This document shows, piece by piece, positions 2,264 through 52,932 of a stretch of 64,000 nt of DNA (positions are counted from its first letter, which is position 1; each line of letters starts with the position of its first letter). The position numbers and the translations under genes were made by a program. The DNA comes from a phage. Under the pieces are notes generated by a model. It was not told the DNA's origin. It ran no database searches and saw only the letters and a program-made list of their open reading frames with translations. The DNA is taken from sequence record PZ386967.1, one strand, 5' to 3'.

Positions 2264-4159
2264 ATGGCAACTCAAAGCTTCAGCGTTGCGCCGTCCGTAC
2301 AGTGGACTGAGCGTGATGCCACGCTTCAGACGTCCCCATCCGTTGTTGTTCAGGGTGCGGCTGTCGGCAAATTCCAATGGGGTGAGGCAGAACTCCCTGT
2401 GTTGGTCACTGGTGGTGAAACTGGTCTGGTGAAGAAATTCTTCAAGCCAAACGATGCAACTGCCACCGACTTCTTAGTGATTGCTGACTTCCTGTCTTAC
2501 AGCTCTGTTGCATGGGTGACCCGTGTGGTCGGTCCGGCGGCACGCAACGCTGTAACCAAAGGTCAGACTGCAATCCTTATCCGCAACAAATTAGACTTCG
2601 AAACTGCGTCCCCATCTGCGTCTATTACCTGGACAGGCCGCTATGCTGGCTCTCTGGGTAACGACATTGCTGTGAACATCTGTGACGCTGCGCTGTTCCC
2701 GACCTGGGAATTCCGTAACAACTTCGCATATGCTCCGCAGGATGGCGAGTACCATATCGCCATCGTTGACAAAGTAGGTCGCATCACCGACTCTTCTGGC
2801 GCTGTTAGTCAGGTTGATCGTATCTCTGTATCCGGTACTGCCACCGCTGCTGGTTCCATCTCTGTTGCTGGTGAAGCCGTGGCGTACACTGACGCTGACA
2901 CCCCGGCGACTCTGGCGACAAAGATCGGAACTGCGCTGACGTCTCTGTCTGAAGTATATTCTTCTGTTGTCGTGAAGTCCAACACCGTCACCGTCACTCA
3001 CAAAGCAATCGGTCCTCAGGCTGCGACTGCGATTGTTCCAGACGCGAATGGCCTGACTGCTACCGCTGCCGTCACCACTGTTGGTGCTTCCGGTACGATC
3101 ATCGAGAAGTATGAACTGGTTCAGACCGCTCAGGGTTCTAAGAAATCTGATGGATCCAATGCATACTTCAAAGACGTGATCAACGGCACCTCAAATTGGG
3201 TGTACACCTTCGCCACTACCCTGGCTGCTGGTGTCATTGAACTCGAAGGTGGTGTAGACGATTACACTGGGAACCGTGTTGCGGCTATCCAGGCACTGAA
3301 CAACGCCGAAGCGTATGATGCCAAGCCAGTGTTCGGTTTCTGTGAAGAACTGATTGAGCAGCAGGCACTGATCGACCTGTCCACCGAGCGTAAAGACACA
3401 GTGTCCTTCGTGTCTCCTCTTCGCGATACGGTCGTCGGAAACCGTGGCCGTGAGATGGATGATGTTGTGGCCTGGCGTGAAAGTCTTGTTCGCGACTCCT
3501 CCTACTTCTTCATGGATGACAACTGGGCGTATGTGTACGACAAGTACAACGACAAAATGCGTTGGATTCCGGCTTGTGGCGGCACCGCAGGTGTTTGGGC
3601 GCGCAGCATTGAAATCGCGGGTATCTACAAATCTCCGGCGTTCCACAACCGTGGTAAATACAACAACTATAATCGAATGGCATGGTCTGCGTCTTCTGAT
3701 GAGCGTGCTGTGCTGTATCGCAACCAGATCAACAGCATTGTCACCTTCTCCAACGAAGGCATCGTGTTGTACGGCGACAAGACTGGCCTGACCCGCCCAT
3801 CTGCGTTCGACCGCATCAACGTTCGTGGTCTGTTCATTATGGCAGAGCAGAACATCGCAGCCATCGCCAAATACTACCTTGGTGAGAACAACGATGCATT
3901 CACTCGTGGGTTGTTCAGCAACGCTGTCCGCCCATATATCCGCCAGTTGGCCAACATGGGCGCGATCTATGACGGGATGGTGAAGTGTGATGAGGACAAC
4001 AACACTGCGGAAGTTATCGCTGCCAACCAGATGGTTGCTGGTATCTGGCTGAAGCCCGAGTACAGCATAAATTGGGTGTATCTCGACTTCGCCGCCGTTC
4101 GCCCGGACATGGAATTCAGTGAGATCGAATCCGGTGGTGGTATCGTAGCCGCTTCTTAA
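2264..4159 (+). CDS. gp18: Tail sheath protein (gp18-like)
   Basis: GKFQWG near N-terminus and C-terminal YGDKT...FDRINVRGLF resemble T4 gp18; ATG at 2264 has RBS GAAGGAA upstream (the track's 2231 start is TTG). Confidence 0.85.
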   Translation: MATQSFSVAPSVQWTERDATLQTSPSVVVQGAAVGKFQWGEAELPVLVTGGETGLVKKFFKPNDATATDFLVIADFLSYSSVAWVTRVVGPAARNAVTKGQTAILIRNKLDFETASPSASITWTGRYAGSLGNDIAVNICDAALFPTWEFRNNFAYAPQDGEYHIAIVDKVGRITDSSGAVSQVDRISVSGTATAAGSISVAGEAVAYTDADTPATLATKIGTALTSLSEVYSSVVVKSNTVTVTHKAIGPQAATAIVPDANGLTATAAVTTVGASGTIIEKYELVQTAQGSKKSDGSNAYFKDVINGTSNWVYTFATTLAAGVIELEGGVDDYTGNRVAAIQALNNAEAYDAKPVFGFCEELIEQQALIDLSTERKDTVSFVSPLRDTVVGNRGREMDDVVAWRESLVRDSSYFFMDDNWAYVYDKYNDKMRWIPACGGTAGVWARSIEIAGIYKSPAFHNRGKYNNYNRMAWSASSDERAVLYRNQINSIVTFSNEGIVLYGDKTGLTRPSAFDRINVRGLFIMAEQNIAAIAKYYLGENNDAFTRGLFSNAVRPYIRQLANMGAIYDGMVKCDEDNNTAEVIAANQMVAGIWLKPEYSINWVYLDFAAVRPDMEFSEIESGGGIVAAS

Positions 4160-4201
4160 TTTACTCCATGCCCTCTTCGGAGGGTACATTGAGGTATTGT
4201 T

Positions 4202-4504
4202 ATGAAAAGTTTTTCTCAATTTTTAGCAGAAGCAGGCCTAAAAGGTGACCTTCAGAAAGTTAAAGACTCCGTGATTGAATGGTTGGAAGACCAAGATGTA
4301 AGGCTCAAAAAGGGTGATATCGAAAATGGAGTATTTGGAGATTTCTTCCGCATAACCATTGATGATTTTGAATATACATATAATGGCAAAGAGATCAAAG
4401 TATTCGACCTGAAGAAAGATAAACAGGTTGTTAGCAAAGCTGCTGGAACTCGAGAAGCCCCAGGTGAACTCGGTAAATTGTTTAAGAAATACAGCAAAGT
4501 GTGA
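4202..4504 (+). CDS. Small basic protein with T4 internal-protein-like capsid targeting sequence
   Basis: N-terminus MKSFSQFLAE|AGL resembles T4 IP targeting sequence MKTYQEFIAE with L-x-E cleavage motif; followed by a terminator. Confidence 0.5.
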   Translation: MKSFSQFLAEAGLKGDLQKVKDSVIEWLEDQDVRLKKGDIENGVFGDFFRITIDDFEYTYNGKEIKVFDLKKDKQVVSKAAGTREAPGELGKLFKKYSKV

Positions 4505-4509
4505 CAAGA

Positions 4510-4537
4510 CCCCGCTTCGGCGGGGTTTTAAATTTTT
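4510..4537 (+). terminator. Rho-independent terminator
   Basis: Hairpin CCCCGC-TTCG-GCGGGG followed by a T-run. Confidence 0.7.
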
Positions 4538-4550
4538 CTAGATTATTTTA

Positions 4551-4578
4551 TTGAATTACTTTACTTCTTCAATAACTC
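4551..4578 (+). promoter_or_regulatory. T4-type early promoter (-35 TTTACT, 16-bp spacer, -10 TATAAT)
   Basis: Matches the repeated cassette; T4 early promoters have a GTTTAC-type -35. Conserved leader and start context follow. Confidence 0.55.
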
Positions 4579-4635
4579 ACGTATAATTCTAAACATAAGC
4601 AGTACGACACCAACTTGAAACGAAGGAACTATATC

Positions 4636-4992
4636 ATGACCAAGACCGAAATTAACGCTATCCTGAAAGAAATCGGCCTCTGCAACCTGAAACGCCGCGT
4701 CAATCCTTACCAGCCCGCAAAGCCAGTACGCGACAGCCAGGGAAAGATGATAAAAGGGATCTACTGTGCAGATGTTGGCCCAATGACTGTGACCAGTCCA
4801 CACATTGACAGATTTAACGCTATTGTTGAGGAGTTTTGTGGTAAGGTTCTGGGTGAACTAGCTAATGATTTATGCTCCCCAGATACCAAAGTTGTAGCTT
4901 TCGGGAGCCACCTCGTCACATTCCACCTCACCAGCTTCCGTGCCCACGGTGATTATCATGTGTATTATGCTCAGGTTAGCATTCGCAAATAG
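4636..4992 (+). CDS. Hypothetical early protein (119 aa)
   Basis: ATG inside the conserved GGAACTATATCATG start context; the track's 4615 start is an upstream TTG. Confidence 0.5.
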   Translation: MTKTEINAILKEIGLCNLKRRVNPYQPAKPVRDSQGKMIKGIYCADVGPMTVTSPHIDRFNAIVEEFCGKVLGELANDLCSPDTKVVAFGSHLVTFHLTSFRAHGDYHVYYAQVSIRK

Positions 4993-4998
4993 CAGTTT

Positions 4999-5025
4999 AC
5001 CCCGCTGAGGCGGGGTTTAGTTTTC
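4999..5025. terminator. Terminator hairpin between convergent genes
   Basis: ACCCCGC-TGAG-GCGGGGT followed by T-rich tract; lies between the + gene ending 4992 and the - gene ending 5017. Confidence 0.6.
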
Positions 5026-6801
5026 CAGTTCATACCGGATAAGACCACACCCCCAGATACGCCCCAACCCGGCTTCCACCGACAGCATATCCTCTGTTTT
5101 GCCTTCTATATCGTATCCAAGTTTAAGGAATTTCTCTTTCCTGAAATTGAATTTGTGTATACGTAAGCTATAGTCTGGTGTCACATATTTGTAATCAGGG
5201 GGAAGGATTTCCTTTTCAACAAATCCGTTATTCAGGTAAACATTTTTCAGACGACTGACAACACAACGATCACCAAAAGAATATACTGTCTCACCCCGAT
5301 GTCGAGCGATATAATATTTCAGCAAGCGTGAGAATGCGCCATGGCAATTGTTAGAAGCAAATCTCACCAATTCAATACCATGCACTCGTTTGGTAAACAA
5401 CATCACCGCCTGGATATTCCCAGTTTTGTCTACAAGGTGTATATAATCTGTCGCCACCACACCACCTTGTATATGGAATCGGTCGAGAAAGTCCTTGGAC
5501 GTCCTATAGGAGCCTTCCAAAATGGTATGTTGGCGAGCGTATGACAATGGTTTCCCTATCCCCAATTTTGCTTTTAGGAGTGATTTAACCACTTCCTGTT
5601 TGTCACGCCACTCATCTTCCCAGATATGGATTAATTGAATACCCTGGGATTCACAGTGCATAGTCTTTTCAAGATGGTAGTCTTTGTATCGATGTTTCTC
5701 CGAATGCCAATACAACCCATTAAATTCTATTGCCAACTTATGTTCTGGGCAGTATATGTCTATCTGGCGTGTGGTCGCCCTCCCGTCGAACATTTTACCT
5801 CTGAGGACGGAGAAATTACCAGATTCATAAACGACACCCAATGAATCCAGGTATGAACATATTTCTATTTCTGGCTGTGTTTGGCTTTGGCTGCTGGGGT
5901 ATGTGAAAGAGTTCCTATATTCTTCAGAAGAGAAATAGTGAGGTACGCCGTATTTTTCTTTTGAAATGATCCTGGTATTGGCCTGGCTTCTATCCCATAT
6001 AGCCTTTACCTTCAACGGATAATCAACCCCATATTTTAAGACGCATGTTTTCTTTCTCTTTTCTATAATGGAATTGAGGAACATTGGATGATCCACACCA
6101 TAGATCTTCCTCCAAGTCTCAATCACCCTTTCCCTCACTTCTGGCATTTTCATGACGTGTGATACGCCATAGCGTTCCATGACAGAAGCAGCCACTCTGT
6201 CCTTTATAACATCAGACTTCATAGGGTGGTCGACCCCATATTTCTTAAGGGCAGTTTCCCGTGACTTTTGTTTTACTTCTTCCAGTTGGAATATGTTGGC
6301 TACGCCATATTTCTCTGTTATGGCGTTTTCTAGGTTGGCCCGTTCTGAGCCTCCCACCTTCATTGATTCTCGTTGGCATTCTTCGGAACAAAACTTTTTG
6401 TATCTGGGCGGTTGGGCTTCCATTTCTAAGCCGACGTCAGCACCGCAAGTGGCACACTGCGACTTCGGAATATCGTACAGCCAAGCAGTTATCGCTTGTG
6501 GTTCTTCTAATAGGTCGTTGTGTGACACCACGTATCCAACAACATCAACCCCAGTATGGGCCGTGAGTAGGGGATGAGAGATAAGTTTGTAGTTCAACGA
6601 ACCATCTTTCTTCCTGAGTTTACTATCAACCCAAGAGCGGCATTCGGTTTCGGTCGTCGGGATGTCATCCAACAAACCCGGATTGCGTTTCATCGTTCCC
6701 AGCATGAATGATTTGCATTCGTCACTACAATACAACGCAGCCTTCCTGGTTGGGGTGAACGGTTTGTGGCAGCATAAACAATTTTTATCGGGGAATGGCA
6801 T
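5017..6801 (-). CDS. Free-standing homing-endonuclease-like protein: N-terminal zinc ribbon, five KYGV repeats, C-terminal PD-(D/E)XK-like nuclease domain
   Basis: CCHKPF...YCSDEC and CATCG...FCSEEC cysteine pairs; repeated ~28-aa units (EKYGVANIF, KKYGVDHPM, ERYGVSHVM, KIYGVDHPM, LKYGVDYPL, EKYGVPHYF); C-terminal IDIYCPEHKLAIEFNGLYWH...IWEDEW resembles Vsr/DUF559-type nucleases. Antisense insertion between gp18 and gp19. Likely ATG at 6801; the track starts at GTG 6816. Confidence 0.6.
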   Translation of the reverse strand: MPFPDKNCLCCHKPFTPTRKAALYCSDECKSFMLGTMKRNPGLLDDIPTTETECRSWVDSKLRKKDGSLNYKLISHPLLTAHTGVDVVGYVVSHNDLLEEPQAITAWLYDIPKSQCATCGADVGLEMEAQPPRYKKFCSEECQRESMKVGGSERANLENAITEKYGVANIFQLEEVKQKSRETALKKYGVDHPMKSDVIKDRVAASVMERYGVSHVMKMPEVRERVIETWRKIYGVDHPMFLNSIIEKRKKTCVLKYGVDYPLKVKAIWDRSQANTRIISKEKYGVPHYFSSEEYRNSFTYPSSQSQTQPEIEICSYLDSLGVVYESGNFSVLRGKMFDGRATTRQIDIYCPEHKLAIEFNGLYWHSEKHRYKDYHLEKTMHCESQGIQLIHIWEDEWRDKQEVVKSLLKAKLGIGKPLSYARQHTILEGSYRTSKDFLDRFHIQGGVVATDYIHLVDKTGNIQAVMLFTKRVHGIELVRFASNNCHGAFSRLLKYYIARHRGETVYSFGDRCVVSRLKNVYLNNGFVEKEILPPDYKYVTPDYSLRIHKFNFRKEKFLKLGYDIEGKTEDMLSVEAGLGRIWGCGLIRYELEN

Positions 6802-6882
6802 AATAAATATCCTCACTTTGGAGTATTTTAACCCCCATTTATTTCAAAACTAAATATTTACACTATTCAGAGGAGAACGACC

Positions 6883-7416
6883 ATGGCTACAGTTAATGAA
6901 TTCAGAGCAGCTATGTCACGCGGGGGTGGCGTTCAGCGCCAACACCGCTGGCGTGTGACTGTTAACTTCCCTTCCTTCGTGGCTGGAAGCGATACCATCC
7001 GTGATGTTTCGCTGTTGGCGGTGACCACAAATACCCCAACAGGCCAGCTCGGGGAGATACTCGTCCCATGGGGTGGTCGTGAACTTCCATTCCCAGGTGA
7101 CCGTCGTTTTGAGGCTCTGCCTGTAACGTTTATCAACGTTGTGGACAACGCCCCGTACAACGCATTCGAAGTCTGGCAGCAGTACATCAACGGCAGCAAC
7201 AACAACCGTGCGTCTGCTAACCCAGATGATTATTTCCGTGATGTAATCATGGAACTGCTGGATGCGAATGACAATGTCACCAAGACCTGGACCCTTCAGG
7301 GCGCCTGGCCTCAGAACCTCGGTCAGCTGGAACTGGACATGTCTGCAATGGACTCTTATACTCAGTTCACTGTTGACCTGCGTTACTTCCAGGCCATTTC
7401 AGACAAGTCTCTCTAA
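6883..7416 (+). CDS. gp19: Tail tube protein (gp19-like)
   Basis: C-terminal LQGAWPQNLGQLELDMSAMDSYTQFTVDL resembles T4 gp19 IKGLWPTNVGELQLDWDSNNEIQTFEVTL; RBS GAGGAG. Confidence 0.8.
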   Translation: MATVNEFRAAMSRGGGVQRQHRWRVTVNFPSFVAGSDTIRDVSLLAVTTNTPTGQLGEILVPWGGRELPFPGDRRFEALPVTFINVVDNAPYNAFEVWQQYINGSNNNRASANPDDYFRDVIMELLDANDNVTKTWTLQGAWPQNLGQLELDMSAMDSYTQFTVDLRYFQAISDKSL

Positions 7417-7482
7417 TGTCCTCAGTGCTGGGGGATCTATATTCCCCCTCACTAATTACAAGAAAATGTTGAGGACTTAATC

Positions 7483-9177
7483 ATGGCATTCGGTAATGGT
7501 GCATTCGGAAATGGGTTCTTCGGCTTGTTCGGCAGAGGCGGCAAAGTAGAAGCGCCGATTGATACCGACAAGATGGTCACGAACCAAGAAGAGAAGTTGC
7601 TTTCAAAAGCGACTGTTGTTGCGCTGGACGATTCTCAGGATGGTTCGATCATCCTCCAGGGCGGCGCGAACACATTCAATTTCGTTGGTGTTGAGAATGA
7701 GTTGCTCAACGTCAAACAGCTGGTCGAAGAGTACCAGTCTATGGCTCAGCAGCCTGAGATTCGTAAGGCTGTGGATATCATTGTCAACGACATCGTCACC
7801 TGTGAAGAGGACGAGACTCCTGTAACCATCAACCTGGAAAAGGTAGATGGCATCACAAACGAAGTCAAAGAGAAGATCACTGAAGCATTCAAAGAGATCA
7901 TGCATCTCCTTGACTTTGACAACACGGCGTATCAGAAGATCCGCAAATGGTATATTGAAGGCCGTCAGGCATTCCACGTTGTAGTGGACCCGAAGAACAA
8001 GAAAGCGGGTATCGCCAAACTCATCATGATGGACTCACGCTGTATCCGCCCAGTGTACATCGTTCAAAAGGCGATGCGCGACGGTATCGAAGTCATCAAT
8101 GACGTAAAACTTCAATACTACTACAACCCGAACTACAACCGCAACCAATTCACTGGCCAGTCCGGTACGTCTCAGAACTTCCAACCGTCACAGCAAGAGC
8201 TGGTGTTCGACGATGAGAGCATCGTGTATCTGGACAGTGGTGAAGAGCCTCTGGCGAATGGGGTTGTACCAAGCCTGCTGAACCCAGCTATCCGTCCCCT
8301 GAACAACCTTGTTACAACTGAAGATGCAACTGTGATCTATGCGATCACACGTGCTCCTGAGAAGCGAGCGTTCTATCTCGACGTGGGTACGCTGGGTAAG
8401 AAGTCGGCCGAAGAATACATGCAAGCCATGATGGGCAAATTCAAGAACCGTCTGGCGTATGATCGCACCACTGGTAAGGTGGCTGGTAACACTCATTTGA
8501 TGGGTATCGCTGAGGACTACTGGCTGCCACGTCGTGAAGGACAGAACGCAACCGAGATCTCCAACGTAGGCGGTGGCGATCAACTGGGTCAAATGGATCA
8601 TGTGGTATACTTCCGCGAGAAGCTCTACGAGGCTCTGATGATCCCTAAGAGCCGCCTGCAAGAGGAAGGTTCCATCAACATCGGTGGTTCCAATCTTGCT
8701 GAAATCACACAGGAAGAATTGCGCTTCAACAAGTTCTGTGCGAGCCTGCGCCGTCGTTATTCTTCTGGTATCTTCCTGGAACTTCTGCGCCGTCAGCTGA
8801 TATTGAAAGGCATTACAGATCAGGCTGACTGGAATGAGAAGATCAAGCCGTTCGTCAAGTTCGAATTCACTTCTGACAGCTTCATCCGTGAACAACAAGA
8901 GAACGAAATCTTGTCACAGCGTATGGCGGCTCTCGGTCAGATCGAACCATATATCGGCACTCTCTTCTCTATCGATTTTGCTCAACGCAATTTGCTGCGT
9001 ATGTCCGATGAAGACATCAAAGACCAGCAAGAGAAGATCGCGAAAGAGAAGAAAGAAGGCAAATACCCTGAAGTGCAGGCAGATGAGTCCGGCGGCTTCG
9101 GCAGCGGGGAAGTCAGTCCACTGAAATTCAGACCTAACGTCATCCCAGCGACTAACCCTCCTGGTGGTGAAGAATAA
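7483..9177 (+). CDS. gp20: Portal protein (gp20-like)
   Basis: 564-aa ORF in the gp19 to gp67/68/21 position of the T4 head module; good RBS. Confidence 0.75.
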   Translation: MAFGNGAFGNGFFGLFGRGGKVEAPIDTDKMVTNQEEKLLSKATVVALDDSQDGSIILQGGANTFNFVGVENELLNVKQLVEEYQSMAQQPEIRKAVDIIVNDIVTCEEDETPVTINLEKVDGITNEVKEKITEAFKEIMHLLDFDNTAYQKIRKWYIEGRQAFHVVVDPKNKKAGIAKLIMMDSRCIRPVYIVQKAMRDGIEVINDVKLQYYYNPNYNRNQFTGQSGTSQNFQPSQQELVFDDESIVYLDSGEEPLANGVVPSLLNPAIRPLNNLVTTEDATVIYAITRAPEKRAFYLDVGTLGKKSAEEYMQAMMGKFKNRLAYDRTTGKVAGNTHLMGIAEDYWLPRREGQNATEISNVGGGDQLGQMDHVVYFREKLYEALMIPKSRLQEEGSINIGGSNLAEITQEELRFNKFCASLRRRYSSGIFLELLRRQLILKGITDQADWNEKIKPFVKFEFTSDSFIREQQENEILSQRMAALGQIEPYIGTLFSIDFAQRNLLRMSDEDIKDQQEKIAKEKKEGKYPEVQADESGGFGSGEVSPLKFRPNVIPATNPPGGEE

Positions 9178-9214
9178 TTCGACTAAGTATAGAAAACATT
9201 TAGAGGATATGAAC

Positions 9215-9385
9215 ATGGCCGCTATCGATCTGGTAAAAGCAATCATCGCTGGTGATACTGATGCCGCTGCTGCTGAATGCGAAATGGAGCTGTCCGCTCG
9301 CGCCCAAGAACTGGTCCAGCAGGGTACTGAATATGTCTTGAACTCCCTGAGCCAAGACATGGGTCCTTTCGGCGACGACCAGTAA
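9215..9385 (+). CDS. gp67: Prohead core protein (gp67-like), small acidic
   Basis: Position between portal and gp68; small Ala/Glu-rich protein; ATG 9215 has the best RBS spacing (GAGGA, 7 nt). Confidence 0.45.
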   Translation: MAAIDLVKAIIAGDTDAAAAECEMELSARAQELVQQGTEYVLNSLSQDMGPFGDDQ

Positions 9386-9397
9386 GAGGAATGTATC

Positions 9398-9703
9398 ATG
9401 GAAATCGAAGAAGTTGCAACGTTCGCTGATTTCCTGGCTTCCCGCATGGATGAGCAGAAAGTCATTGACAAGGTGAACGCAAAAGGCAAACGCCGTCGCC
9501 GTCTGCAGTGTGCTCCTGGTTTCAAACTGTCTGCGGATGGTTCCCGTTGTGAGGTGATGGTCGCCAGTGAGCGCCGTACTCGCAAGCTGGGCAACCGCAA
9601 GGCGATCCGAGCCAAGAAACGCATGGGTATGGGATACCAGCGCAAAATCGAGCGTCGTAAGAAAAAAGCAATGAAGTTCCGTCGTATGATGGGGCTGAGT
9701 TAA
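9398..9703 (+). CDS. gp68: Prohead core protein (gp68-like), highly basic C-terminus
   Basis: Position between gp67 and gp21; KR-rich C-terminus. Confidence 0.45.
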   Translation: MEIEEVATFADFLASRMDEQKVIDKVNAKGKRRRRLQCAPGFKLSADGSRCEVMVASERRTRKLGNRKAIRAKKRMGMGYQRKIERRKKKAMKFRRMMGLS

Positions 9704-9710
9704 GGAGCGA

Positions 9711-10379
9711 ATGATGAAACTGTTGCGTGAGATCACTGCGATAGGGAAAGACCTTCAGATTGGTGAAGCGGCCACGGCTACTGGCGGCAAAGCCATGTAC
9801 ATCGAAGGTCCATTCGTGATGTGTAACCAGGTGAACCGTAATGGTCGCAACTACGATCTCCAAAAGGTGGGTATCCCTGCTGTCGAAGCATACGACAAAG
9901 AGTATATCCAGGATCGTCGTGCAATCGGTGAACTCAAGCATCCGGATTATCCTTTCCCCGATATCGAACACGCTGCACTCAAAACCGAATCTTTGCGCTG
10001 GGAAGGCACCAACGCTATCGGTCGAGCGCGGATCCTGAATACACCGAAAGGTCAGATCATTCGTGCTCTGGCTGAAGCAGACTTCAACCTGGCCGTGTCT
10101 ACACGTGGCCTTGGTGAGACCAAGTCAGTGAACGGCTATGATGACGTTCAACCCGGCTTTATGCTCACTGCTGTTGATGCAGTCGACCGTCCTTCTGGAC
10201 AAGTTTGTTATGTAAAGGCTGTGAGCGAATCTGTGGAATGGCAGCTTGATGAATCTTCAGGAATCTGGGTTCCTAAGGACATTAAGGGGCATGTGGTCGA
10301 TTCATTGGTGAAAACCAATATTCAGTTAGAAGACGACTTCCTGCGCCGCCTCGATATCGCATTGAAACATCTGGGCTGA
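9711..10379 (+). CDS. gp21: Prohead core scaffold/protease (gp21-like)
   Basis: AIGELKHPDYP...GRARIL...VSTRGLGE...LTAVDAV aligns with T4 gp21 ALGELNHPPR...GRARVI...VSSRGLGS...LTVGVDAV. Confidence 0.85.
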   Translation: MMKLLREITAIGKDLQIGEAATATGGKAMYIEGPFVMCNQVNRNGRNYDLQKVGIPAVEAYDKEYIQDRRAIGELKHPDYPFPDIEHAALKTESLRWEGTNAIGRARILNTPKGQIIRALAEADFNLAVSTRGLGETKSVNGYDDVQPGFMLTAVDAVDRPSGQVCYVKAVSESVEWQLDESSGIWVPKDIKGHVVDSLVKTNIQLEDDFLRRLDIALKHLG

Positions 10380-10424: not shown

Positions 10425-11276
10425 ATGAAACCTGAATTGCAAAAACTGTTTGAGGGCGTTAACGGCCTCAGCACCGACTTCCTGGATAAAGTGTCTGGTC
10501 TGCTGGAATCTAAAGTAGAAGCCGCTCGCCTGACCGCTATTCAAGAAACCGAAAACGCTGCCAATATTGAGCGCCTGCGTCTGGTTGAAGCTCATCAGGC
10601 TGAGATTGCTCAGCTGAAAGAGTCTCACTTGATGGAAATTGCGACCAAAGTCGATGGCTTCCTGAACGCGGTTGTAGAAGAGTGGGCTAACAAGAACGCT
10701 CCTGCCATCGACGCTCAGATCAAACGTGAAGCGGCTGAAAATCTGCTGGCTGGCCTGACTGGTGTTCTGAAAGAAGCTGGTATCAACTTTGCCACCGACG
10801 AAAACGGCCAGATCGCTGCGCTGACTGCCCGCCTGACCGAAGCAGAACGACGTGCTGCGATTGCCGAAAGCGAAAACCGTCAAATCAAAGAAGCCGCGAA
10901 TGCGACTCTGCGTGACTCTGTGATCGCCCGTATCTGTGAAGGTATGGTCGACACCAAGAAAGCAACGGTTGTCAATCTGCTGGAAGCTGTGCAGTTCACC
11001 ACCGAAAGCGAATTCGCTTCCCGCGTACACACCTTCCGCAACCTGGTAGAAGGTAAGTCCGTGAAGAAAGAAGGCGATGACGATGACGATGACTTCCAAG
11101 ACAAAGTCGGCGGAAAAGACGGCGATGACGACAACAAAGATGTTAAAGCCGAAGGCAAAAAGCCTAAGAAAGAAGGCGATGAAGATGACGATGAAGATGA
11201 AACAGACAAAGAGCTGAAAGAATCTATCAAGCGTCAGTTGGCCGACTATAATCGTCGCTTCGGCATCAACGGCTAA
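10425..11276 (+). CDS. gp22: Prohead scaffolding protein (gp22-like), coiled-coil with acidic C-terminus
   Basis: Position between gp21 and gp23; alpha-helical Ala/Glu-rich sequence with poly-Asp/Glu tail. Confidence 0.7.
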   Translation: MKPELQKLFEGVNGLSTDFLDKVSGLLESKVEAARLTAIQETENAANIERLRLVEAHQAEIAQLKESHLMEIATKVDGFLNAVVEEWANKNAPAIDAQIKREAAENLLAGLTGVLKEAGINFATDENGQIAALTARLTEAERRAAIAESENRQIKEAANATLRDSVIARICEGMVDTKKATVVNLLEAVQFTTESEFASRVHTFRNLVEGKSVKKEGDDDDDDFQDKVGGKDGDDDNKDVKAEGKKPKKEGDEDDDEDETDKELKESIKRQLADYNRRFGING

Positions 11277-47077: not shown

Positions 47078-47692
47078 ATGACGATGACAACGTTGAAGGC
47101 CATGGCCTTGTCCGTGACCTTTACCATTGCCAGCGGGAATGTGCACGCTTCCCAAAGTACCACCCAATGTGATTATAATTTCTCCGAGCAACAACTCAAT
47201 ACACTGGCAACTGCCTACCATGTAGGCAAGACACAAGACCTTGGTTACACCCTGGCTGCAATATCCTGGCGAGAGAGCCGCGCTGGTGAAGATGTAGTGT
47301 CAATGCGATACGGCCTCAAGGCGGCCAACATGGGAGCCTTTCAGAACAAGGTGAAGACAGTTGGTGATCGCGAAGGTTGTAAGAATCGCAAGTGCTATGC
47401 CAATGTCGCCATAAAGTTGCTGACCGACCAAGAATATGCCGCGCAAGCCGCCCTCGATGAGATGCAGTTCTGGCTGACCTATCACAATCAGAATATCCGC
47501 AAATCCCTCTCCTCTTACAATGCTGGCTTCGCCCGTAATCCTGCATCGAACGCTTATGCTGCCGACGTCGTGAAGAAAGCTAAATATCTTCAGAAATGTG
47601 TGTCTTTCGAAGGCCGGACCATCTCCGAGGTAGATCCTCGGGTGATCGCCATGAACAAGCACACAATAGAGAAACTGAAGAGGACAAGATAA
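47078..47692 (+). CDS. Secreted lytic-transglycosylase-like protein (SLT domain)
   Basis: Signal peptide MTMTTLKAMALSVTFTIASGNVHA|S; AISWRESRAGE (catalytic ES), MGAFQ, SYNAG resemble SLT-domain motifs. Confidence 0.5.
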   Translation: MTMTTLKAMALSVTFTIASGNVHASQSTTQCDYNFSEQQLNTLATAYHVGKTQDLGYTLAAISWRESRAGEDVVSMRYGLKAANMGAFQNKVKTVGDREGCKNRKCYANVAIKLLTDQEYAAQAALDEMQFWLTYHNQNIRKSLSSYNAGFARNPASNAYAADVVKKAKYLQKCVSFEGRTISEVDPRVIAMNKHTIEKLKRTR

Positions 47693-48330
47693 TGAACATC
47701 ACTCCATCTCAGGCCGGATATGAACATATCTTGGTCTTCATTGCTCTACAGGGTGCGAAGGAAGGCATCATCGTATCCGAGTACTCAGGCACGGTTCGCC
47801 TTGCCGATTATGTCGCACCAGAGGCATTTATCAAGAAGTGTATTGACGCATGGTGTCTCTATGCCCTCAGCACATACCCTGCTCCTCCTGAGGGTGAGCT
47901 GTTGTTTACTGTACCGACTCCGGCTGTTGGGGATACGGATGCCATCTTTGCCGATATGCTGGCGAAGGGGTATCTGGTGTATGACATCACCCACGATGTC
48001 TACTCTTTTACTTCGCTGAACACCGTGTTTGGATTCACCATCACATCTGAAGCCAACATCCCTGACTGGGGTATCTTGGCATGGGGTGTTGACGGCCTGG
48101 GTGCAACCTACGCATCGTCTGACGTCGGTGCAGTTCTGATTGATGAGGGTGTCACCATGGAGCAGTACCTTGCCCAGTTCCCTCAGCACAATATCACAGG
48201 CAGCGACATCATTTTGGTCCAGCCTGGCGCTATCGCTCTCCCCCGTTTGGTGGATGGATGGAATCCTCGGCTGAAGGGCATCATCGCAGGTATTCGATCC
48301 CACATTCCGATTGTGAATCCGACGCCGTAA
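47692..48330 (+). CDS. Hypothetical protein (212 aa)
   Basis: Start overlaps the upstream stop (TAATG). Confidence 0.45.
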   Translation: MNITPSQAGYEHILVFIALQGAKEGIIVSEYSGTVRLADYVAPEAFIKKCIDAWCLYALSTYPAPPEGELLFTVPTPAVGDTDAIFADMLAKGYLVYDITHDVYSFTSLNTVFGFTITSEANIPDWGILAWGVDGLGATYASSDVGAVLIDEGVTMEQYLAQFPQHNITGSDIILVQPGAIALPRLVDGWNPRLKGIIAGIRSHIPIVNPTP

Positions 48331-49070: not shown

Positions 49071-49145
49071 GATAAGGGGGCTGACGCTCCCTTTTGGTTT
49101 CGCTAATTAGAAGAAACCGCCGTTAATTCAATCAGGAGATATAAA

Positions 49146-52130
49146 ATGTCAAAGCCAAGTTTCCTCCAGTTCATGCAGGAAAGAGATCAGTTGGACGAAG
49201 CGTTCAACTCCGCTCCGTATGAGCTGACCATGGGTAAGAAGAACGCAGGCGATGTGTTCTTCACCTTCGTCGACGAAGATGATAAGGAATACCGCATTCA
49301 GTTCTATACTCCTCAGGGACTGGGCAAGAGCGTTCGTCAGGTTTTCATCGGCCAGAAGCGCGGCTCCGTCTATCCTGACGCCATCGCTCGCTTCAAGAAC
49401 CCAATGCGCGTTATTGCTTCCATGATCGAAGCGACCAAACAATTCATGGCGACTCCTCTGGGCAAAACTATCGATGGCTATGCTGTCAACTTCTCGAAGA
49501 AAGCGCTGGATCGCGGTATGACCCTGATTCCTAAGATCATCCGCCAGTCCGGTCTGAAGCAGAAACTGAATGTCATGGACCTGACCTACGCGCCTGTCCC
49601 TGACCGTGGTTATGTGTGGCTAGTTCGTAAGGGCAAAGATCCGGCTCAGGTATTCGACGGTCCGAAGATGCAGGGTATCACCTGGGATGATCCAGACAAG
49701 GTCGGTGACGTTCCGGTTCAGAACAATACTCCGGATGTGGGTGTGTCATCTTCTGTTGATAATTCCAACGGATGGAAATTAACTTCAAACGGGGATCAGC
49801 CCATGTTGATATGGGCTGGTAAGGAGAGAGGCCGCACGAATACGGCAAATATCGCTCCCCACTACAATGAGCCGGGCGTGTATGTTGGCGCATACATGAA
49901 TGAGAAACCTGTGCGTGGGCAAAGTGCTGATTTCATTGCTCGTCAGTTGAAATTACCACAAGTCCCTATCAGTATCCTGAATGATTTCACCACGGCGTCC
50001 ACAAAATTTTGGAAAGGTTCTCAACAGAAATCTGCGCCTGTTGTGCCGGCAGGTTCGGACAGAAATAACCCAGCCAACATTATCGGTTCTGGAACTGCTG
50101 TTATTGATGCCAAACGGCTTGGTGCTCAGGAAGTAAACGTGGAACGATTCAAAAACGGCGTTCGCATGCGTTCTCGAAACGGTGACGTCGACATCAGTAT
50201 TTCTGACCCAGACTTTTCAAATGCAGCAAGTGCGGCTGATGCTGCCACAGCCTCTGTTGTGGTCAAGAACGGGCGTTACGAAGGTGCCATCAATTCAAAG
50301 CGCAAGATTGCCCGCACCTCGAACGAGCAGGGTACTGAATGGGATATCATCGGTGTCAACGGGGAAACCCTTGTCTCTATCAAGTTGAACAAAGTGTCTA
50401 AATCCACATCAGATTCGACCGAGGGTGCAACCAGTGTTGATCAATTACGTGACAGCGGTTTCATCGCTCGTGTTCTGGGTATCATTGATACCAACGTTGG
50501 GCTGGACACTTCTATTCTTCCTGGTGAAAACATCCGTCGCGTGGGCGCTGGTCGTTACACGACGGCAGGCGGGTTGGTTATCGTTGTCAACTTCACAAAC
50601 GTCCTCGCTGGTTTCGTTCAATACTCAGTTTTCAGCGAAATTGCTGAAGAGGAGAACGTGGCCAAAGGTAGCGCCCGTGACGTCGCCAAGGCGGTAATTG
50701 CGTCCATCTTTGAGGTTGCTAAGACCCAGTACACTGGCAAATGGGAAATTAGCGCAGTGCCAACAAGCGCTCCATATCCTATCAAAGCCATTCGCCGTTC
50801 TCGGGGCTGGGGTTATGTGGAAACCGCAAACTGGACTCTGACAGTGTCCGACGCTGTCCTGAATCGTGTGAAGCCAGGGAACACTGCTCTACTGGAACTC
50901 ATCAAAGAACCTCCGCGTGGCAAGCACCCGCTGGAAATCATCCCAGAGAAGGGCGACAAGACCCTGATGCTGAAAGATCGTATCACCGGGGCCATCTATG
51001 GTTCTATCGACCTGAATGCCCAAGGCGCTGATCTGGTCAACTCTGGAACCCTGAAGATACCAAGCAACGCCATGGTGTTTGGTGAGACTGTCAACGGTAT
51101 GTCCATTCGGTGGGATGTCAATTTCCCCGAAACGGGAAAATACGCCGGTACTTCTATGATAACCAACGTGACCTATTACTACGACAAAGGTAAAGTTGCA
51201 TTCACCCCAATTGTCTCTCAGAAAGGGCGTACCCTGAACAATCCGAAGACATATGAACTTCCTTTAAACAAAGATATGGTCCAGAGTGTGATTGATGAGA
51301 TTTCATCAAAAATGGTATATCTTTCCAGAAACCTCCAACAGTTGAAAAGTCAGTCATACAACCCAAACCAGGTGTTCTTGAACGATATAACCATCACGGA
51401 TAAAGGTGAAGTGATTTGGAATGATTACAACTTGTCTGACGGCAAAGTTACACAAATTATGCTGTCCATGATAAGCGCAGAAAATAAACGCCTGGAGAAA
51501 GTAGCAAACACGCCGGATATCAATATCACATTGCCCAAGAAACAAGCTGAAGTGGTAGAATTTATAAACCGGATGATCGATGTCGATCTCACCCCTTATG
51601 TGAGAACCCCCAAAAAACGTGATGTGGTATTATTTGACTCTTCTGAATTGTCGATAAACCAACTCAACAACATAGAACGCCTGGGAAGAGAAACAGGAAA
51701 ATGGTCTCTTCAGCCAAACGGTGGTATGGGTCATGCACTACTTCTGAAAAGCACGTCGCACAATCCGAAGGACGACCTTGCGGCATACGCCGACTCCATT
51801 CGCGACAACGCACCAAAAGGTCGCGACCTGGATTGGCAGATCTATGCAAGCCGTGATGGTCAGACTCTGAACGTGGACTGGGATATCACCTTCCGCCGCA
51901 ACACAACTGAAGGGGCATATCGCGAGTTCAAAGCTCAGATTGACCGCGCCAACCAGTACCTGCAGACACTGTACCGGGATGCGAAGTCCAAGGGTTACAA
52001 CCCGACTGAACCAAACCTGATGACTCTGGATAGCGCCCAGCAGTCTGACCAGTGGGCACGAGACTACGGGGAAGGCGCATACAGCGAGTACGAGCAGTCC
52101 CTGGGTGGCAACATGCAGATTAAGATCTGA
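49146..52130 (+). CDS. Large (994 aa) protein with internal-protein-like N-terminal capsid targeting sequence; candidate packaged/injected protein
   Basis: N-terminus MSKPSFLQFMQERDQLDE|AF resembles the T4 targeting sequence with L-x-E cleavage motif; RBS AGGAGA; no catalytic family recognised. Confidence 0.55.
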   Translation: MSKPSFLQFMQERDQLDEAFNSAPYELTMGKKNAGDVFFTFVDEDDKEYRIQFYTPQGLGKSVRQVFIGQKRGSVYPDAIARFKNPMRVIASMIEATKQFMATPLGKTIDGYAVNFSKKALDRGMTLIPKIIRQSGLKQKLNVMDLTYAPVPDRGYVWLVRKGKDPAQVFDGPKMQGITWDDPDKVGDVPVQNNTPDVGVSSSVDNSNGWKLTSNGDQPMLIWAGKERGRTNTANIAPHYNEPGVYVGAYMNEKPVRGQSADFIARQLKLPQVPISILNDFTTASTKFWKGSQQKSAPVVPAGSDRNNPANIIGSGTAVIDAKRLGAQEVNVERFKNGVRMRSRNGDVDISISDPDFSNAASAADAATASVVVKNGRYEGAINSKRKIARTSNEQGTEWDIIGVNGETLVSIKLNKVSKSTSDSTEGATSVDQLRDSGFIARVLGIIDTNVGLDTSILPGENIRRVGAGRYTTAGGLVIVVNFTNVLAGFVQYSVFSEIAEEENVAKGSARDVAKAVIASIFEVAKTQYTGKWEISAVPTSAPYPIKAIRRSRGWGYVETANWTLTVSDAVLNRVKPGNTALLELIKEPPRGKHPLEIIPEKGDKTLMLKDRITGAIYGSIDLNAQGADLVNSGTLKIPSNAMVFGETVNGMSIRWDVNFPETGKYAGTSMITNVTYYYDKGKVAFTPIVSQKGRTLNNPKTYELPLNKDMVQSVIDEISSKMVYLSRNLQQLKSQSYNPNQVFLNDITITDKGEVIWNDYNLSDGKVTQIMLSMISAENKRLEKVANTPDINITLPKKQAEVVEFINRMIDVDLTPYVRTPKKRDVVLFDSSELSINQLNNIERLGRETGKWSLQPNGGMGHALLLKSTSHNPKDDLAAYADSIRDNAPKGRDLDWQIYASRDGQTLNVDWDITFRRNTTEGAYREFKAQIDRANQYLQTLYRDAKSKGYNPTEPNLMTLDSAQQSDQWARDYGEGAYSEYEQSLGGNMQIKI

Positions 52131-52154
52131 TCATTGAAAGCCCCTTCGGGGGCT

Positions 52155-52162
52155 TATAAATA
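52155..52162 (+). promoter_or_regulatory. T4-type late promoter (TATAAATA)
   Basis: Exact TATAAATA 26 nt upstream of the ATG at 52188. Confidence 0.5.
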
Positions 52163-52187
52163 ACTGAAATCCCCGAGGAGAGATCCA

Positions 52188-52493
52188 ATGAAACCTTTTA
52201 TCGAATATTTTAAAGAACAAGCCGCTCAACCCCAGACCCATGCTGGTGTCCAGGGTAAGACCGTATCCATCACCAAGCAAGCTGACGGCACCCAGTGGTG
52301 TTCCGGCGCTACCGTGACCCAGATTACCCCTGACAATCAGGCGGATGTATATAACCTGGAGTTAACCAACGGCAACACTATCAAGGTGAAGCTGACCCCA
52401 GACCAGACTCACGGTATCTCCCAAGGTCAGGAAGTCGTTGCTGTTCATGACGGCTTCGAATTCTTCTTTGGCAAGTCTATCGACAAAGACTAA
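52188..52493 (+). CDS. Internal-protein-like small protein with capsid targeting sequence
   Basis: MKPFIEYFKE|QAA resembles T4 IPI/IPII/IPIII N-termini; canonical late promoter and RBS GAGGAGA upstream. Confidence 0.5.
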   Translation: MKPFIEYFKEQAAQPQTHAGVQGKTVSITKQADGTQWCSGATVTQITPDNQADVYNLELTNGNTIKVKLTPDQTHGISQGQEVVAVHDGFEFFFGKSIDKD

Positions 52494-52578
52494 GTGAAAC
52501 CATCAAGATGACTCTTGTCAAGCCATGATCATAATCCCCCTTAAATACAGGGGGATTTCTTTTTCTGAGGACAACATC

Positions 52579-52932
52579 ATGGTCAATGCGAGTATTTTCA
52601 TCAACCGTGGACTGCTTGCTATAGCCCACTCTCATGCCTTGCACTTCGTTACAACATCCTATGCCAAGCACAAGGCACTCGGGGAGTTCTACGGGGAATT
52701 GGAGGGCTTGCTGGACACGTTTACCGAAGCATACATCGGTGCGGGTGGTCAGTATGTTCCATCATTCGAGAATATCAAATTGTACAACCCAGACCCTATC
52801 TCCTATATTAACAGTGTGGTGATAGACGTCGATGGCATCTACAAGCAGTGTGACTCCCACCTTCAGAGCACTCTTGACGATATCAAGACACTGTGCTACC
52901 AGACGATCTACAAACTGAAGCAGCTGTCGTAA
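52579..52932 (+). CDS. Hypothetical protein (117 aa)
   Basis: Internal ATG of the track ORF with RBS GAGGA 8 nt upstream. Confidence 0.4.
   Translation: MVNASIFINRGLLAIAHSHALHFVTTSYAKHKALGEFYGELEGLLDTFTEAYIGAGGQYVPSFENIKLYNPDPISYINSVVIDVDGIYKQCDSHLQSTLDDIKTLCYQTIYKLKQLS

Follow-up and report, generated by a model that had tools for sequence, protein, structure and literature searches.

Two adjoining genes, coding for proteins of 994 and 101 aa, raise the question of where in a phage particle their products reside and what these do once infection begins. The window, as we call the whole analysed stretch of 64,000 nucleotides (sequence record PZ386967.1), is an Agtrevirus-like Ackermannviridae genome (a ViI-like phage), to which its close relative, phage ZQ1, is 97% identical. 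The initial annotation had taken both products for packaged virion proteins with capsid-targeting leaders. Both open reading frames and both N-termini are present where it had put them, and the proposal was supported by the tag pattern, the protease, the scaffold, the cleavage motif, the links to Ip9 and Alt and the virions of relatives, with details of the cleavage site and the promoter in need of revision. We consider it likely that the proteins are targeted to the prohead core by their leaders, cut by a gp21-type protease, kept in the head and ejected with the DNA. It is from the evidence given below that we infer their head location, processing, ejection and function.

Leader tag and predicted cleavage site

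The genes with leaders and the assembly proteins that would act on them are as follows (arrows mark predicted cleavage).

49146..52130, + strand: gene for the 994-aa modular protein (leader, M1 and cassettes M2-M7), starting MSKPSFLQFMQERDQLDEAF
49146..49199, + strand: leader MSKPSFLQFMQERDQLDE (aa 1-18), capsid-targeting-like (F6/F9/M10/E12), with the predicted protease site L16-D17-E18↓A19
52188..52493, + strand: gene for the 101-aa protein, with leader MKPFIEYFKE↓Q (aa 1-10), flexible linker and small beta-barrel (aa 22-96)
4202..4504, + strand: third tagged gene (100 aa, MKSFSQFLAE↓AGLK), just after the tail sheath gene
9711..10379, + strand: prohead protease of the T4 gp21 family (Peptidase_S77 match, 1.9e-29), the presumed remover of the leaders
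10425..11276, + strand: T4-type scaffolding protein (T4_CASP match, 7.7e-43), the presumed docking partner for the leaders

Experiments on the T4 tag have assigned targeting to residues 4 and 7 and processing to residues 8 and 10 (PMC9026906). The T4-type determinants (aromatic residues at 4 and 7, a hydrophobic residue at 8 and Glu at 10) are fitted exactly by MKPFIEYFKE and MKSFSQFLAE, and the stretch SFLQFMQE of the 994-aa protein shows equal spacing, shifted by two (F6, F9, M10, E12). The pattern ^M.{0,5}[FYW]..[FYW][LIMFV].E occurs in 3 of 855 ORFs that start with ATG, all six frames of the window counted, namely the 994-aa gene, the 101-aa gene and the gene at 4202; it was derived after the sequences had been seen, but it led independently to the third gene. 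Over the whole ZQ1 genome, the pattern otherwise matched nothing but an ORF lying on the non-coding strand and, within a membrane protein, an internal ATG. The N-terminal resemblance to the T4 tag exceeds chance. Among the highest-ranked literature matches on capsid targeting with Ackermannviridae, Kuttervirus, Vi01, CBA120 or Agtrevirus, the phrase itself was absent.

E18 is invariant within (L/I/V)-x-E↓(A/V/S)-F-(N/D) in 11 divergent members of the family, the leaders of which vary from 13 to 43 aa, and the order of variable leader, (L/I/V)-x-E and M1 is kept in most of about 90 M1-family representatives (clustered at 50% identity). The motif lies at the exact start of the conserved domain M1. 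Cutting at L-x-E, as described for the T4 sequence that both leaders were said to resemble, is predicted at L-D-E18↓A in the 994-aa protein and not in the 101-aa protein, whose predicted P3 is Phe (F-K-E) instead of the classical L or I. Elsewhere in the window, the scaffolding protein contains at least 14 [LIV]-x-E sites, and the gp23-family capsid protein has L-G-E54↓S immediately ahead of its Pfam core.

Both the 101-aa and the 100-aa proteins are small and carry a single cargo domain. A word-index protein search with the 101-aa protein returned only three matches, and a TOBE/Mop molybdate-binding domain was rejected for it, the score being 18 bits against a Pfam cut-off of 22.3. Relatives possess a second domain in the small protein as well as a gp216 gene, both of which have been lost from the window phage.

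Modular anatomy of the 994-aa protein

Following the leader, the 994-aa protein is divided into seven modules, unlike the small internal head proteins with their single cargo:

49200..49721, + strand: M1 (aa 19-192), N-terminal domain common to the whole family
49758..50036, + strand: cassette M2 (aa 205-297), in about 104 of 120 homologue clusters
50058..50399, + strand: cassette M3 (aa 305-418), in about 66 of 120 homologue clusters
50433..51050, + strand: module M4 (aa 430-635), near-constant core
51051..51500, + strand: module M5 (aa 636-785), near-constant core with the most invariant columns
51528..51749, + strand: cassette M6 (aa 795-868), homologous to mature Ip9 of T-even phages
51768..52127, + strand: cassette M7 (aa 875-994; FRRNT...SAYSEYEQSLGG domain), also found as stand-alone small proteins

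In the AlphaFold model, folded modules (pLDDT 70-90) are separated by disordered linkers, and M1 is modelled at low confidence (pLDDT about 45) because the sequences used are at least 84% identical within it. M1, M4 and M5 are nearly constant across the homologues, among which at least 35 architectures were observed in 121 clusters; lengths range from 531 to 1208 aa, and whole cassettes are dispensable. The idea of a polyprotein cut into its cassettes was dropped, because no (L/I/V/M/F)-x-E site is present at any linker.

Searches of Pfam, NCBIfam and PDB sequences with the 994-aa protein gave no match, and in this respect it has no recognisable family, as had been stated; PHROGs matches (phrog_3867, and phrog_7673 'internal head protein' on residues 796-851), relatives and a modular anatomy do exist. 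The structure prediction and remote homology search that the initial annotation had called for yielded the modular model, a link to Ip9 and a probable one to Alt. Foldseek found nothing in the PDB at E <= 0.001, and no recognisable activity or target was found in any cassette. Weak GNAT/SpeG matches in the PDB (probability up to 0.98, TM 0.36-0.42) were not tied to a region.

M1 and the N-terminal domain of T4 Alt

Mature T4 Alt lacks the first six residues (MELITE↓LFDED; record X15811), and both BLASTP and hhalign align this cleavage site with E18 of the 994-aa protein, so that L-D-E↓A-F-N stands opposite I-T-E↓L-F-D of T4 Alt and L-N-E↓V-F-D of other Alt proteins. By sequence statistics the link between M1 and Alt is weak. 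BLASTP gave an E-value of 0.008, hhalign gave 0.0017 over 156 columns with a probability of only 15.6%, and HMMER produced no cross-match between the two. The hhalign score of 29.3 compares with 14.3 +/- 2.7 in column shuffles (z about 5.5) and was attained by 1 of 200 shuffles. In addition, Foldseek matched Alt of phage phiAS5 (probability 1.0, E 3e-3, 179 columns), and Alt's ADPrib_exo_Tox domain was found in three M1-bearing metagenomic proteins, one of them collinear with Alt. Taken with the structural model, these alignments make it probable that M1 and the T4 Alt N-terminal domain share a common origin. The ADP-ribosyltransferase domain (PF03496), for which T4 Alt scores 5.8e-36, had no Pfam match in the 994-aa protein, and a word-index protein search with the M1 domain of a Vibrio relative returned no matches.

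Cargo cassettes M6 and M7

M6 and M7 are homologous to tagged stand-alone proteins. Over all of mature Ip9, a T-even protein tagged MKTYQEFIAE, M6 shows 36% identity (pairwise E 2e-15), and M7 also occurs within a small protein tagged MKTFKEFVKE, which lies in a gene array of the internal-protein type on a contig where such tags begin 9 of 11 genes. In the Vibrio relative, a tagged InPase is encoded beside the big gene.

Transcription signals

The following signals accompany the two genes:

49074..49093, + strand: terminator-like hairpin AAGGGGGC TGAC GCTCCCTT, then TTGGTTT, closing the upstream gene
49103..49109, + strand: late-promoter-like CTAATTA, 37 nt upstream of the 994-aa gene
52138..52155, + strand: intergenic GC hairpin AAGCCCC TTCG GGGGCTT, read from sequence, with no T-run after it and abutting the promoter motif
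52155..52162, + strand: TATAAATA, the T4-consensus late-promoter motif, 26 nt before the ATG of the 101-aa gene

The octamer TATAAATA was thus located as described 26 nt upstream of the small gene. By itself it is not significant: two exact copies stand in the 64 kb window where 0.74 would be expected, and at least two copies arose in 19 of 100 shuffles. The late-promoter-like motif of this phage is the looser (C/T/A)TAA(A/T/G)TA, with 21 occurrences on the + strand against 4 on the - strand; 14 of the 21 sit 10-60 nt upstream of + strand genes, including those for sheath, tube, portal, scaffold and major capsid protein. The initial annotation had singled out the small gene for its late promoter and missed CTAATTA, a variant identical to that ahead of the portal gene (7452). 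The small gene is not special in its promoter, because the 994-aa gene likewise lies behind a late-promoter-like element. A good Shine-Dalgarno sequence precedes both ORFs.

Virion proteomes of relatives

Others have shown that homologues of the two proteins are present in purified virions of relatives. In CsCl-purified virions of Kuttervirus Sajous1, gp214 (795 aa, the homologue of the 994-aa protein) yielded 196 spectra and was among the five most-detected virion proteins, while gp215 (the homologue of the 101-aa protein), gp216 and gp217 yielded 32, 20 and 10 spectra, respectively. In Dickeya phage LIMEstone1, 'unknown structural proteins' are encoded together by ORF78-85, with 23 peptides for ORF81, and the XF4 homologues are annotated 'unknown structural protein'. 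The published proteomes of Sajous1 and LIMEstone1 cover whole virions, head and tail together.

Alternative explanations

Since virion proteomics is blind to head versus tail, the same detections would be expected of tail or baseplate components, and some GenBank records do call the large protein a 'putative tail completion protein'. The Sajous1 paper goes further and proposes, from Phyre2 (BiMOP at 63% confidence, ferritin at 96.7%), a tail-located ferritin/molybdate operon, that is, an iron- or molybdate-loaded 'ferrojan horse' entry device, with which the ferritin-like nature of the adjoining DUF5856 protein agrees. We regard a tail location as very unlikely. Neither Pfam nor PHROG nor NCBIfam shows any likeness of the large protein to T4 gp3 or gp15, and the ZQ1 annotation places separate gp3-like tail completion and gp15 sheath-stabilisation genes elsewhere in the genome; the TOBE match of the small protein falls below the Pfam cut-off, and the Sajous1 authors report no iron-uptake dependence for the host tested. 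Moreover, a conserved leader, a protease site and homologies to Ip9 and Alt would be out of place in a tail protein, and cassettes that come and go freely sit uneasily with a fixed tail structure. The beads-on-a-string architecture, high spectral counts (Sajous1 gp214) and great cassette variation are what an external decoration like T4 Hoc might show, with small domains on the head surface varying with the environment. Hoc, however, binds after capsid expansion and is neither targeted to the core nor cut by gp21 (PMC9026906), whereas the family of the 994-aa protein retains the leader and the gp21-type site. The lack of a PDB match at E <= 0.001 in Foldseek leaves nothing to indicate a Hoc-like Ig domain, capsid-targeting tags accompany M6 and M7 in other phages, and the toxin-type ADP-ribosyltransferase domains of M1-bearing relatives make sense only inside a cell, all of which renders surface decoration highly improbable.

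The route of targeting and processing would be the same for core or scaffold components that serve in head building, are cut and partly retained, and play no role after ejection, and the near-constancy of M1, M4 and M5 in the family is in keeping with such a part. Against this stand the dispensable cassettes, with the great range of lengths, and the loss of the second domain of the small protein and of the gp216 gene from the window phage. Scaffold, protease and core proteins are already encoded within the head gene block, and the linkers of the 994-aa protein lack (L/I)-x-E sites, which abound in the scaffold. We therefore judge a purely structural role in the core to be unlikely.

A model for packaging and ejection

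In the reading that we favour, packaging followed by ejection, the three genes (for the 994-aa and 101-aa proteins and the one at 4202) would be expressed late and their products built into the prohead scaffolding core via the leader. The gp21-family protease would then cut after Glu, at L-D-E18↓A in the 994-aa, F-K-E10↓Q in the 101-aa and L-A-E10↓A in the 100-aa protein, leaving predicted mature starts at Ala19 (AFNSAPYELTMGK), Gln11 (QAAQPQTHAGVQGK) and Ala11 (AGLKGDLQK), respectively. In T4, a Glu-to-Asp exchange at the site abolishes processing and spares packaging. The mature proteins would remain in the DNA-filled head and exit with the DNA at infection. Ejection triggered in vitro by LPS has been established for phage Det7, and tail particles free of capsids ('tailocins') have been obtained from phage S117 by portal or capsid deletion. 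The 994-aa protein appears to have an Alt-like build of short leader, carrier domain M1 of about 170 aa and cargo, the cargo being small domains strung on disordered linkers, and these domains are gained, lost and swapped among related phages. By analogy, this cargo most likely binds or inhibits host factors in the first minutes of infection, with anti-defence as the best precedent. ViI-like phages carry modified thymidines, against which type IV restriction enzymes can act.

Comparison with known systems

T4 Alt enters the prohead core, is trimmed by gp21 and accompanies the DNA on ejection (PMC9026906). It resembles the 994-aa protein in being large and late, in a very short leader that ends in (L/I)-x-E, then x-F-(D/N), and in an N-terminal domain of about 170 aa that is collinear with M1 and, to judge by sequence, probably homologous to it. 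The 994-aa protein differs in having no ADP-ribosyltransferase and in a cargo of six small domains in combinatorially variable order; its leader is also longer (18 aa) and includes an IP-type targeting motif. With IPI, IPII, IPIII and the Ip locus of T-even phages, the window shares identical targeting determinants and the same protease family, and the likeness extends to the homology of M6 to mature Ip9, to M7 as a tagged gene in an Ip-type array and to the rapid turnover of cargo between related phages. One such protein, IPI*, is injected and inhibits the restriction enzyme GmrSD (PMC3012670). The T-even phages have many small, individually tagged genes, in contrast to the single 110-kDa polypeptide, much larger than T4 IPI-III, in which most of the cargo is fused here, and the three tagged genes of the window are scattered rather than gathered in one locus. 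In the giant phages phiKZ and SPN3US, a gp21-related protease cuts behind Glu in many proteins of the head interior, which are ejected (PMC9026906); these differ in their cleavage logo and multi-site propeptides, and no sequence relation of theirs to the 994-aa protein was found.

A further likeness concerns the tagged InPase next to the big gene of the Vibrio relative, which brings to mind the polyvalent proteins that phages and conjugative elements encode; the InPase domain PF18823 was reportedly defined for this class (Iyer et al. 2017). Polyvalent proteins are large, comprise several domains, are believed to enter the recipient with the DNA and bring together several counter-defence functions. 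None of their catalogued domains is found in the 994-aa protein, whose proposed delivery by T4-type tag and head core is specific.

Implications

Ackermannviridae are widely used in the biocontrol and detection of Salmonella, E. coli O157, Klebsiella and Dickeya, and their host range is now explained almost entirely by tailspikes. The present analysis corrects the misleading annotations 'tail completion protein' and 'ferrojan horse' operon, and it points to the N-terminal domain of T4 Alt as a carrier module in general use for effectors packaged in the head. The leader may also offer a handle for packaging foreign proteins into Ackermannviridae, for which there is precedent in T4. Tentatively, and as a possibility that we would not yet favour, the 994-aa protein may be a combinatorial delivery vehicle, in which one tag and one Alt-type carrier serve swappable inhibitor-like domains and the set of cassettes in each Ackermannviridae strain would decide which intracellular defences are overcome. 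If so, M1 would represent a widespread 'carrier' superfamily (about 90 clusters at 50% identity) with cargo from ADP-ribosyltransferase to metalloprotease-like domains. An abundant and highly variable injected protein would be an obvious candidate for the strain-specific success or failure of these phages after adsorption, and the delivery vehicle would constitute a second, post-adsorption determinant of host range beside the tailspikes.

Genomic setting and predicted expression of the gene pair

The closest DNA match of the window is Escherichia phage vB_EcoM-ZQ1 (96.7% identical), and Ag3 and AV101 are also related; because of this kinship, the window phage is, by sequence, classed as Agtrevirus-like, within the Ackermannviridae. 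Its adjoining genes for a 994-aa and a 101-aa protein are labeled "hypothetical" or "structural" across all database records, and "putative tail completion protein" is seen additionally for the former alone. The relevant features are the following (a slash marks a predicted cut):

4202..4504, +, third tagged gene, 100 aa, MKSFSQFLAE/AGLK, directly 3' of the tail sheath gene
9398..9703, +, "prohead core protein", 101 aa
11359..12693, +, gp23-type major capsid protein, L-G-E54/S ahead of the Pfam Gp23 core (from residue 65)
47078..47692, +, weak SLT-like transglycosylase ("RegB" in relatives) with signal-peptide-like start, preceding the DUF7270 gene
47692..48330, +, DUF7270 protein (4.5e-110), called structural protein in XF4 and D5lw
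49146..52130, +, 994-aa protein
52155-52162, TATAAATA, 3' of a GC hairpin, between the 994-aa and 101-aa genes
52188..52493, +, 101-aa protein
52541, TTAAATA, late-promoter-like, before the DUF5856 gene (next after the 101-aa gene)
52579..52932, +, DUF5856 ferritin/Dps-like protein (3e-29)

Among the genes of the window are those for four head proteins of T4 type: a Peptidase_S77 protease of the T4 gp21 family, a scaffolding protein in which [LIV]-x-E occurs at least 14 times, a portal like gp20 and the gp23-type major capsid protein. A propeptide of 65 residues is removed from T4 gp23, and by analogy L-G-E54/S is the predicted maturation site of the capsid protein here. The "prohead core protein" begins MEIEE/VATFADFL, is extremely basic (RRRR, KKRMGMGYQRKIERRKKK) and is possibly an internal protein condensing DNA.

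The initial annotation had placed a canonical late promoter before the 101-aa gene. A motif does stand there (ATAAATA), but it is not special to this gene: CTAATTA, the variant also carried by the portal gene, lies 37 nt 5' of the 994-aa gene. The exact T4 octamer occurs twice in the window, not significantly more than the 0.74 copies expected. DNA 5' of the genes for sheath, tube, portal, scaffold and capsid revealed a looser motif, (C/T/A)TAA(A/T/G)TA, that is found 21 times on the + strand versus 4 times on the - strand, with 14 copies placed 10-60 nt 5' of genes. Since it precedes both members of the pair, both look late.

Leaders and predicted cut site

The first ten residues of T4 IPIII, an internal head protein, are enough for packaging, and in the T4 tag residues 4 and 7 serve targeting and residues 8 and 10 processing (PMC9026906). 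The N-termini quoted in the initial annotation were correct, and the T4 likeness claimed for them was borne out in the spacing of these determinants. The leader of the 101-aa protein (MKPFIEYFKE) and that of the 100-aa protein both have aromatic residues at 4 and 7, a hydrophobic residue at 8 and Glu at 10, the leader of the 100-aa protein being the nearest resemblance in the window to T4 MKTYQEFIAE/A; in the 994-aa protein the equal spacing is shifted two residues inward (F6, F9, M10, E12). A search pattern built on this spacing fits only these three genes among 855 ATG-started ORFs in six frames of the window, and the entire ZQ1 genome gave no further credible match. Among relatives, gp216 of the Kuttervirus Sajous1 begins MKGFPDFLKE, and small-gene counterparts begin MKSFSDFLMTE (Erwinia) and MPSFKCIAE (Vibrio). 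The 100-aa protein has no Pfam match and a non-significant PHROG match (E 0.19).

In 11 aligned members of the 994-aa family, from phages of Escherichia, Salmonella, Dickeya, Erwinia, Serratia, Vibrio and Aeromonas, the leader is 13 to 43 residues long and ends in an invariant Glu within (L/I/V)-x-E; behind this Glu come (A/V/S)-F-(N/D) and M1, the conserved N-terminal domain of the family. When 1.84 billion cluster representatives were searched exhaustively with HMMER, 134 relatives were found; about 90 carry M1, N-terminal every time, in proteins of 279 to 1439 aa, and most share the boundary (e.g., MMNE/AFD, MSSINE/SFD, MLNFLKE/AFD).

Probable relationship of M1 to Alt

T4 Alt, an ADP-ribosyltransferase, is packaged in the core, processed by gp21 and ejected (PMC9026906), and its database record gives six residues as removed (MELITE/LFDED). 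A Vibrio M1 is 32% identical to Alt residues 2-51 (E 0.008), and the two cut sites line up. When a profile of 11 M1 sequences was aligned to one of 9 Alt N-domains, the result was E 0.0017 over 156 collinear columns, its score of 29.3 comparing with 14.3 +/- 2.7 for column-shuffled controls, of which 1 of 200 reached it. When the full 994-aa model was searched against viral structures with Foldseek, Alt of Aeromonas phage phiAS5 ranked right behind the family's own members (probability 1.0, 179 columns). Three M1-bearing metagenomic proteins carry ADPrib_exo_Tox, the family of the Alt catalytic domain, at the C-terminus, and one of them aligns to Alt over both regions. Because HMMER alone does not link the M1 and Alt families and the M1 region of the AlphaFold model is of low confidence, homology of the two N-terminal domains is considered probable.

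Variable cargo modules

In the AlphaFold model of the 994-aa protein (mean pLDDT 69.8), M1 is followed by six folded modules (pLDDT 70-90) with disordered linkers between them, and the module borders coincide with those of blocks present or absent among homologues. At least 35 architectures were observed among 121 homologue clusters: M1 is first in all, M4-M5 are kept in nearly all, 0-4 cassettes lie between M1 and M4, and the C-terminal cassettes vary. M6 is 36% identical to the entire mature part of Ip9 (pairwise E-value 2e-15) and also matches PHROG 7673; Ip9 itself is an internal head protein of T-even phages and begins with the canonical MKTYQEFIAE tag. The initial annotation had recognised no family for the 994-aa protein; homology searches supplied the M6-Ip9 relationship, and a link of M1 to Alt is probable.

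Dozens of small stand-alone proteins also contain M7; one of them begins MKTFKEFVKE and comes from metagenome contig ERZ27247700 k141_67859. Nine of the 11 genes on this 5.6-kb contig begin with MKTF(K/Q)EF..E-type tags, among them the M7-domain gene and one for a DUF6267 protein of 407 aa, so that the contig is a typical internal-protein array. In Vibrio phage D533, the large gene is present as two tandem paralogues (3424..5637 and 5992..8991), one with a C-terminal domain bearing an HEMGH (zinc-protease-like) motif, followed by a tagged InPase at 9089..9697 (PF18823, 5e-34). In the PDB, Foldseek repeatedly but weakly matched the 994-aa model to SpeG-type GNAT acetyltransferases (probability up to 0.98, E >= 0.018, TM 0.36-0.42), the matched part not being reported.

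The 101-aa protein also follows this plan of a tag with swappable cargo, because its Sajous1 and XF4 versions have a second domain and its homologue in Erwinia phage Bue1 is fused to a gp216 domain. Compared with Kuttervirus and Limestonevirus, the window phage lacks that second domain (101 versus 189 aa), and gp216, a tagged gene of 79 aa, is missing altogether (52493..52579 versus 6001..6819 in a relative). A TOBE match of the 101-aa protein fell under the Pfam threshold.

Virion proteomes and alternative roles

In published data from CsCl-purified Sajous1 virions, gp214 (795 aa), the counterpart of the 994-aa protein, is among the five most-detected proteins with 196 spectra, and gp215 (the 101-aa protein), gp216 (79 aa) and gp217 (DUF5856) have 32, 20 and 10. 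Portal and sheath have 89 each; because gp214 is per residue detected at least equally often, the spectra suggest, as a rough estimate, tens or more copies per virion. In Dickeya phage LIMEstone1, ORF78-85 were published as clustered "unknown structural proteins"; judging from mass and gene order, we infer that ORF81 and ORF82 together (40.9 and 18.8 kDa) correspond to the 531-aa XF4 homologue, ORF80 to the 189-aa protein and ORF78 to DUF5856, and ORF85 is probably DUF7270. The DUF5856 N-terminus is not tag-like, although homologues occur in Sajous1 and LIMEstone1 virions.

The simplest reading of these sequences is that both proteins belong to a T4-type system, being head-internal, protease-trimmed and ejected. 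A tail location or a "ferrojan horse" device, that is, metal-loaded entry on the tail, is less consistent with the data: its basis is weak fold guesses, and it leaves the leader, the cut site and the homologies unexplained. The data likewise fit less well with a Hoc-like decoration of the head surface or with a role in morphogenesis alone. For the head-internal, ejected proteins, an anti-defence role may be proposed by analogy with IPI* and Alt (PMC3012670).

The phrase "capsid targeting" is absent from the 25 best-ranked papers combining that term with Ackermannviridae terms, and neither internal nor injected proteins are mentioned in a recent review on this phage family. Head-internal, protease-trimmed and ejected protein systems are well known from T4. 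The largest member here would join an Alt-like carrier to a variable series of cargo domains resembling internal proteins; the novelty would lie in fusing many such domains behind a single tag and a carrier of Alt type, in the combinatorial variability of the cargo and in how broad the M1 family is.
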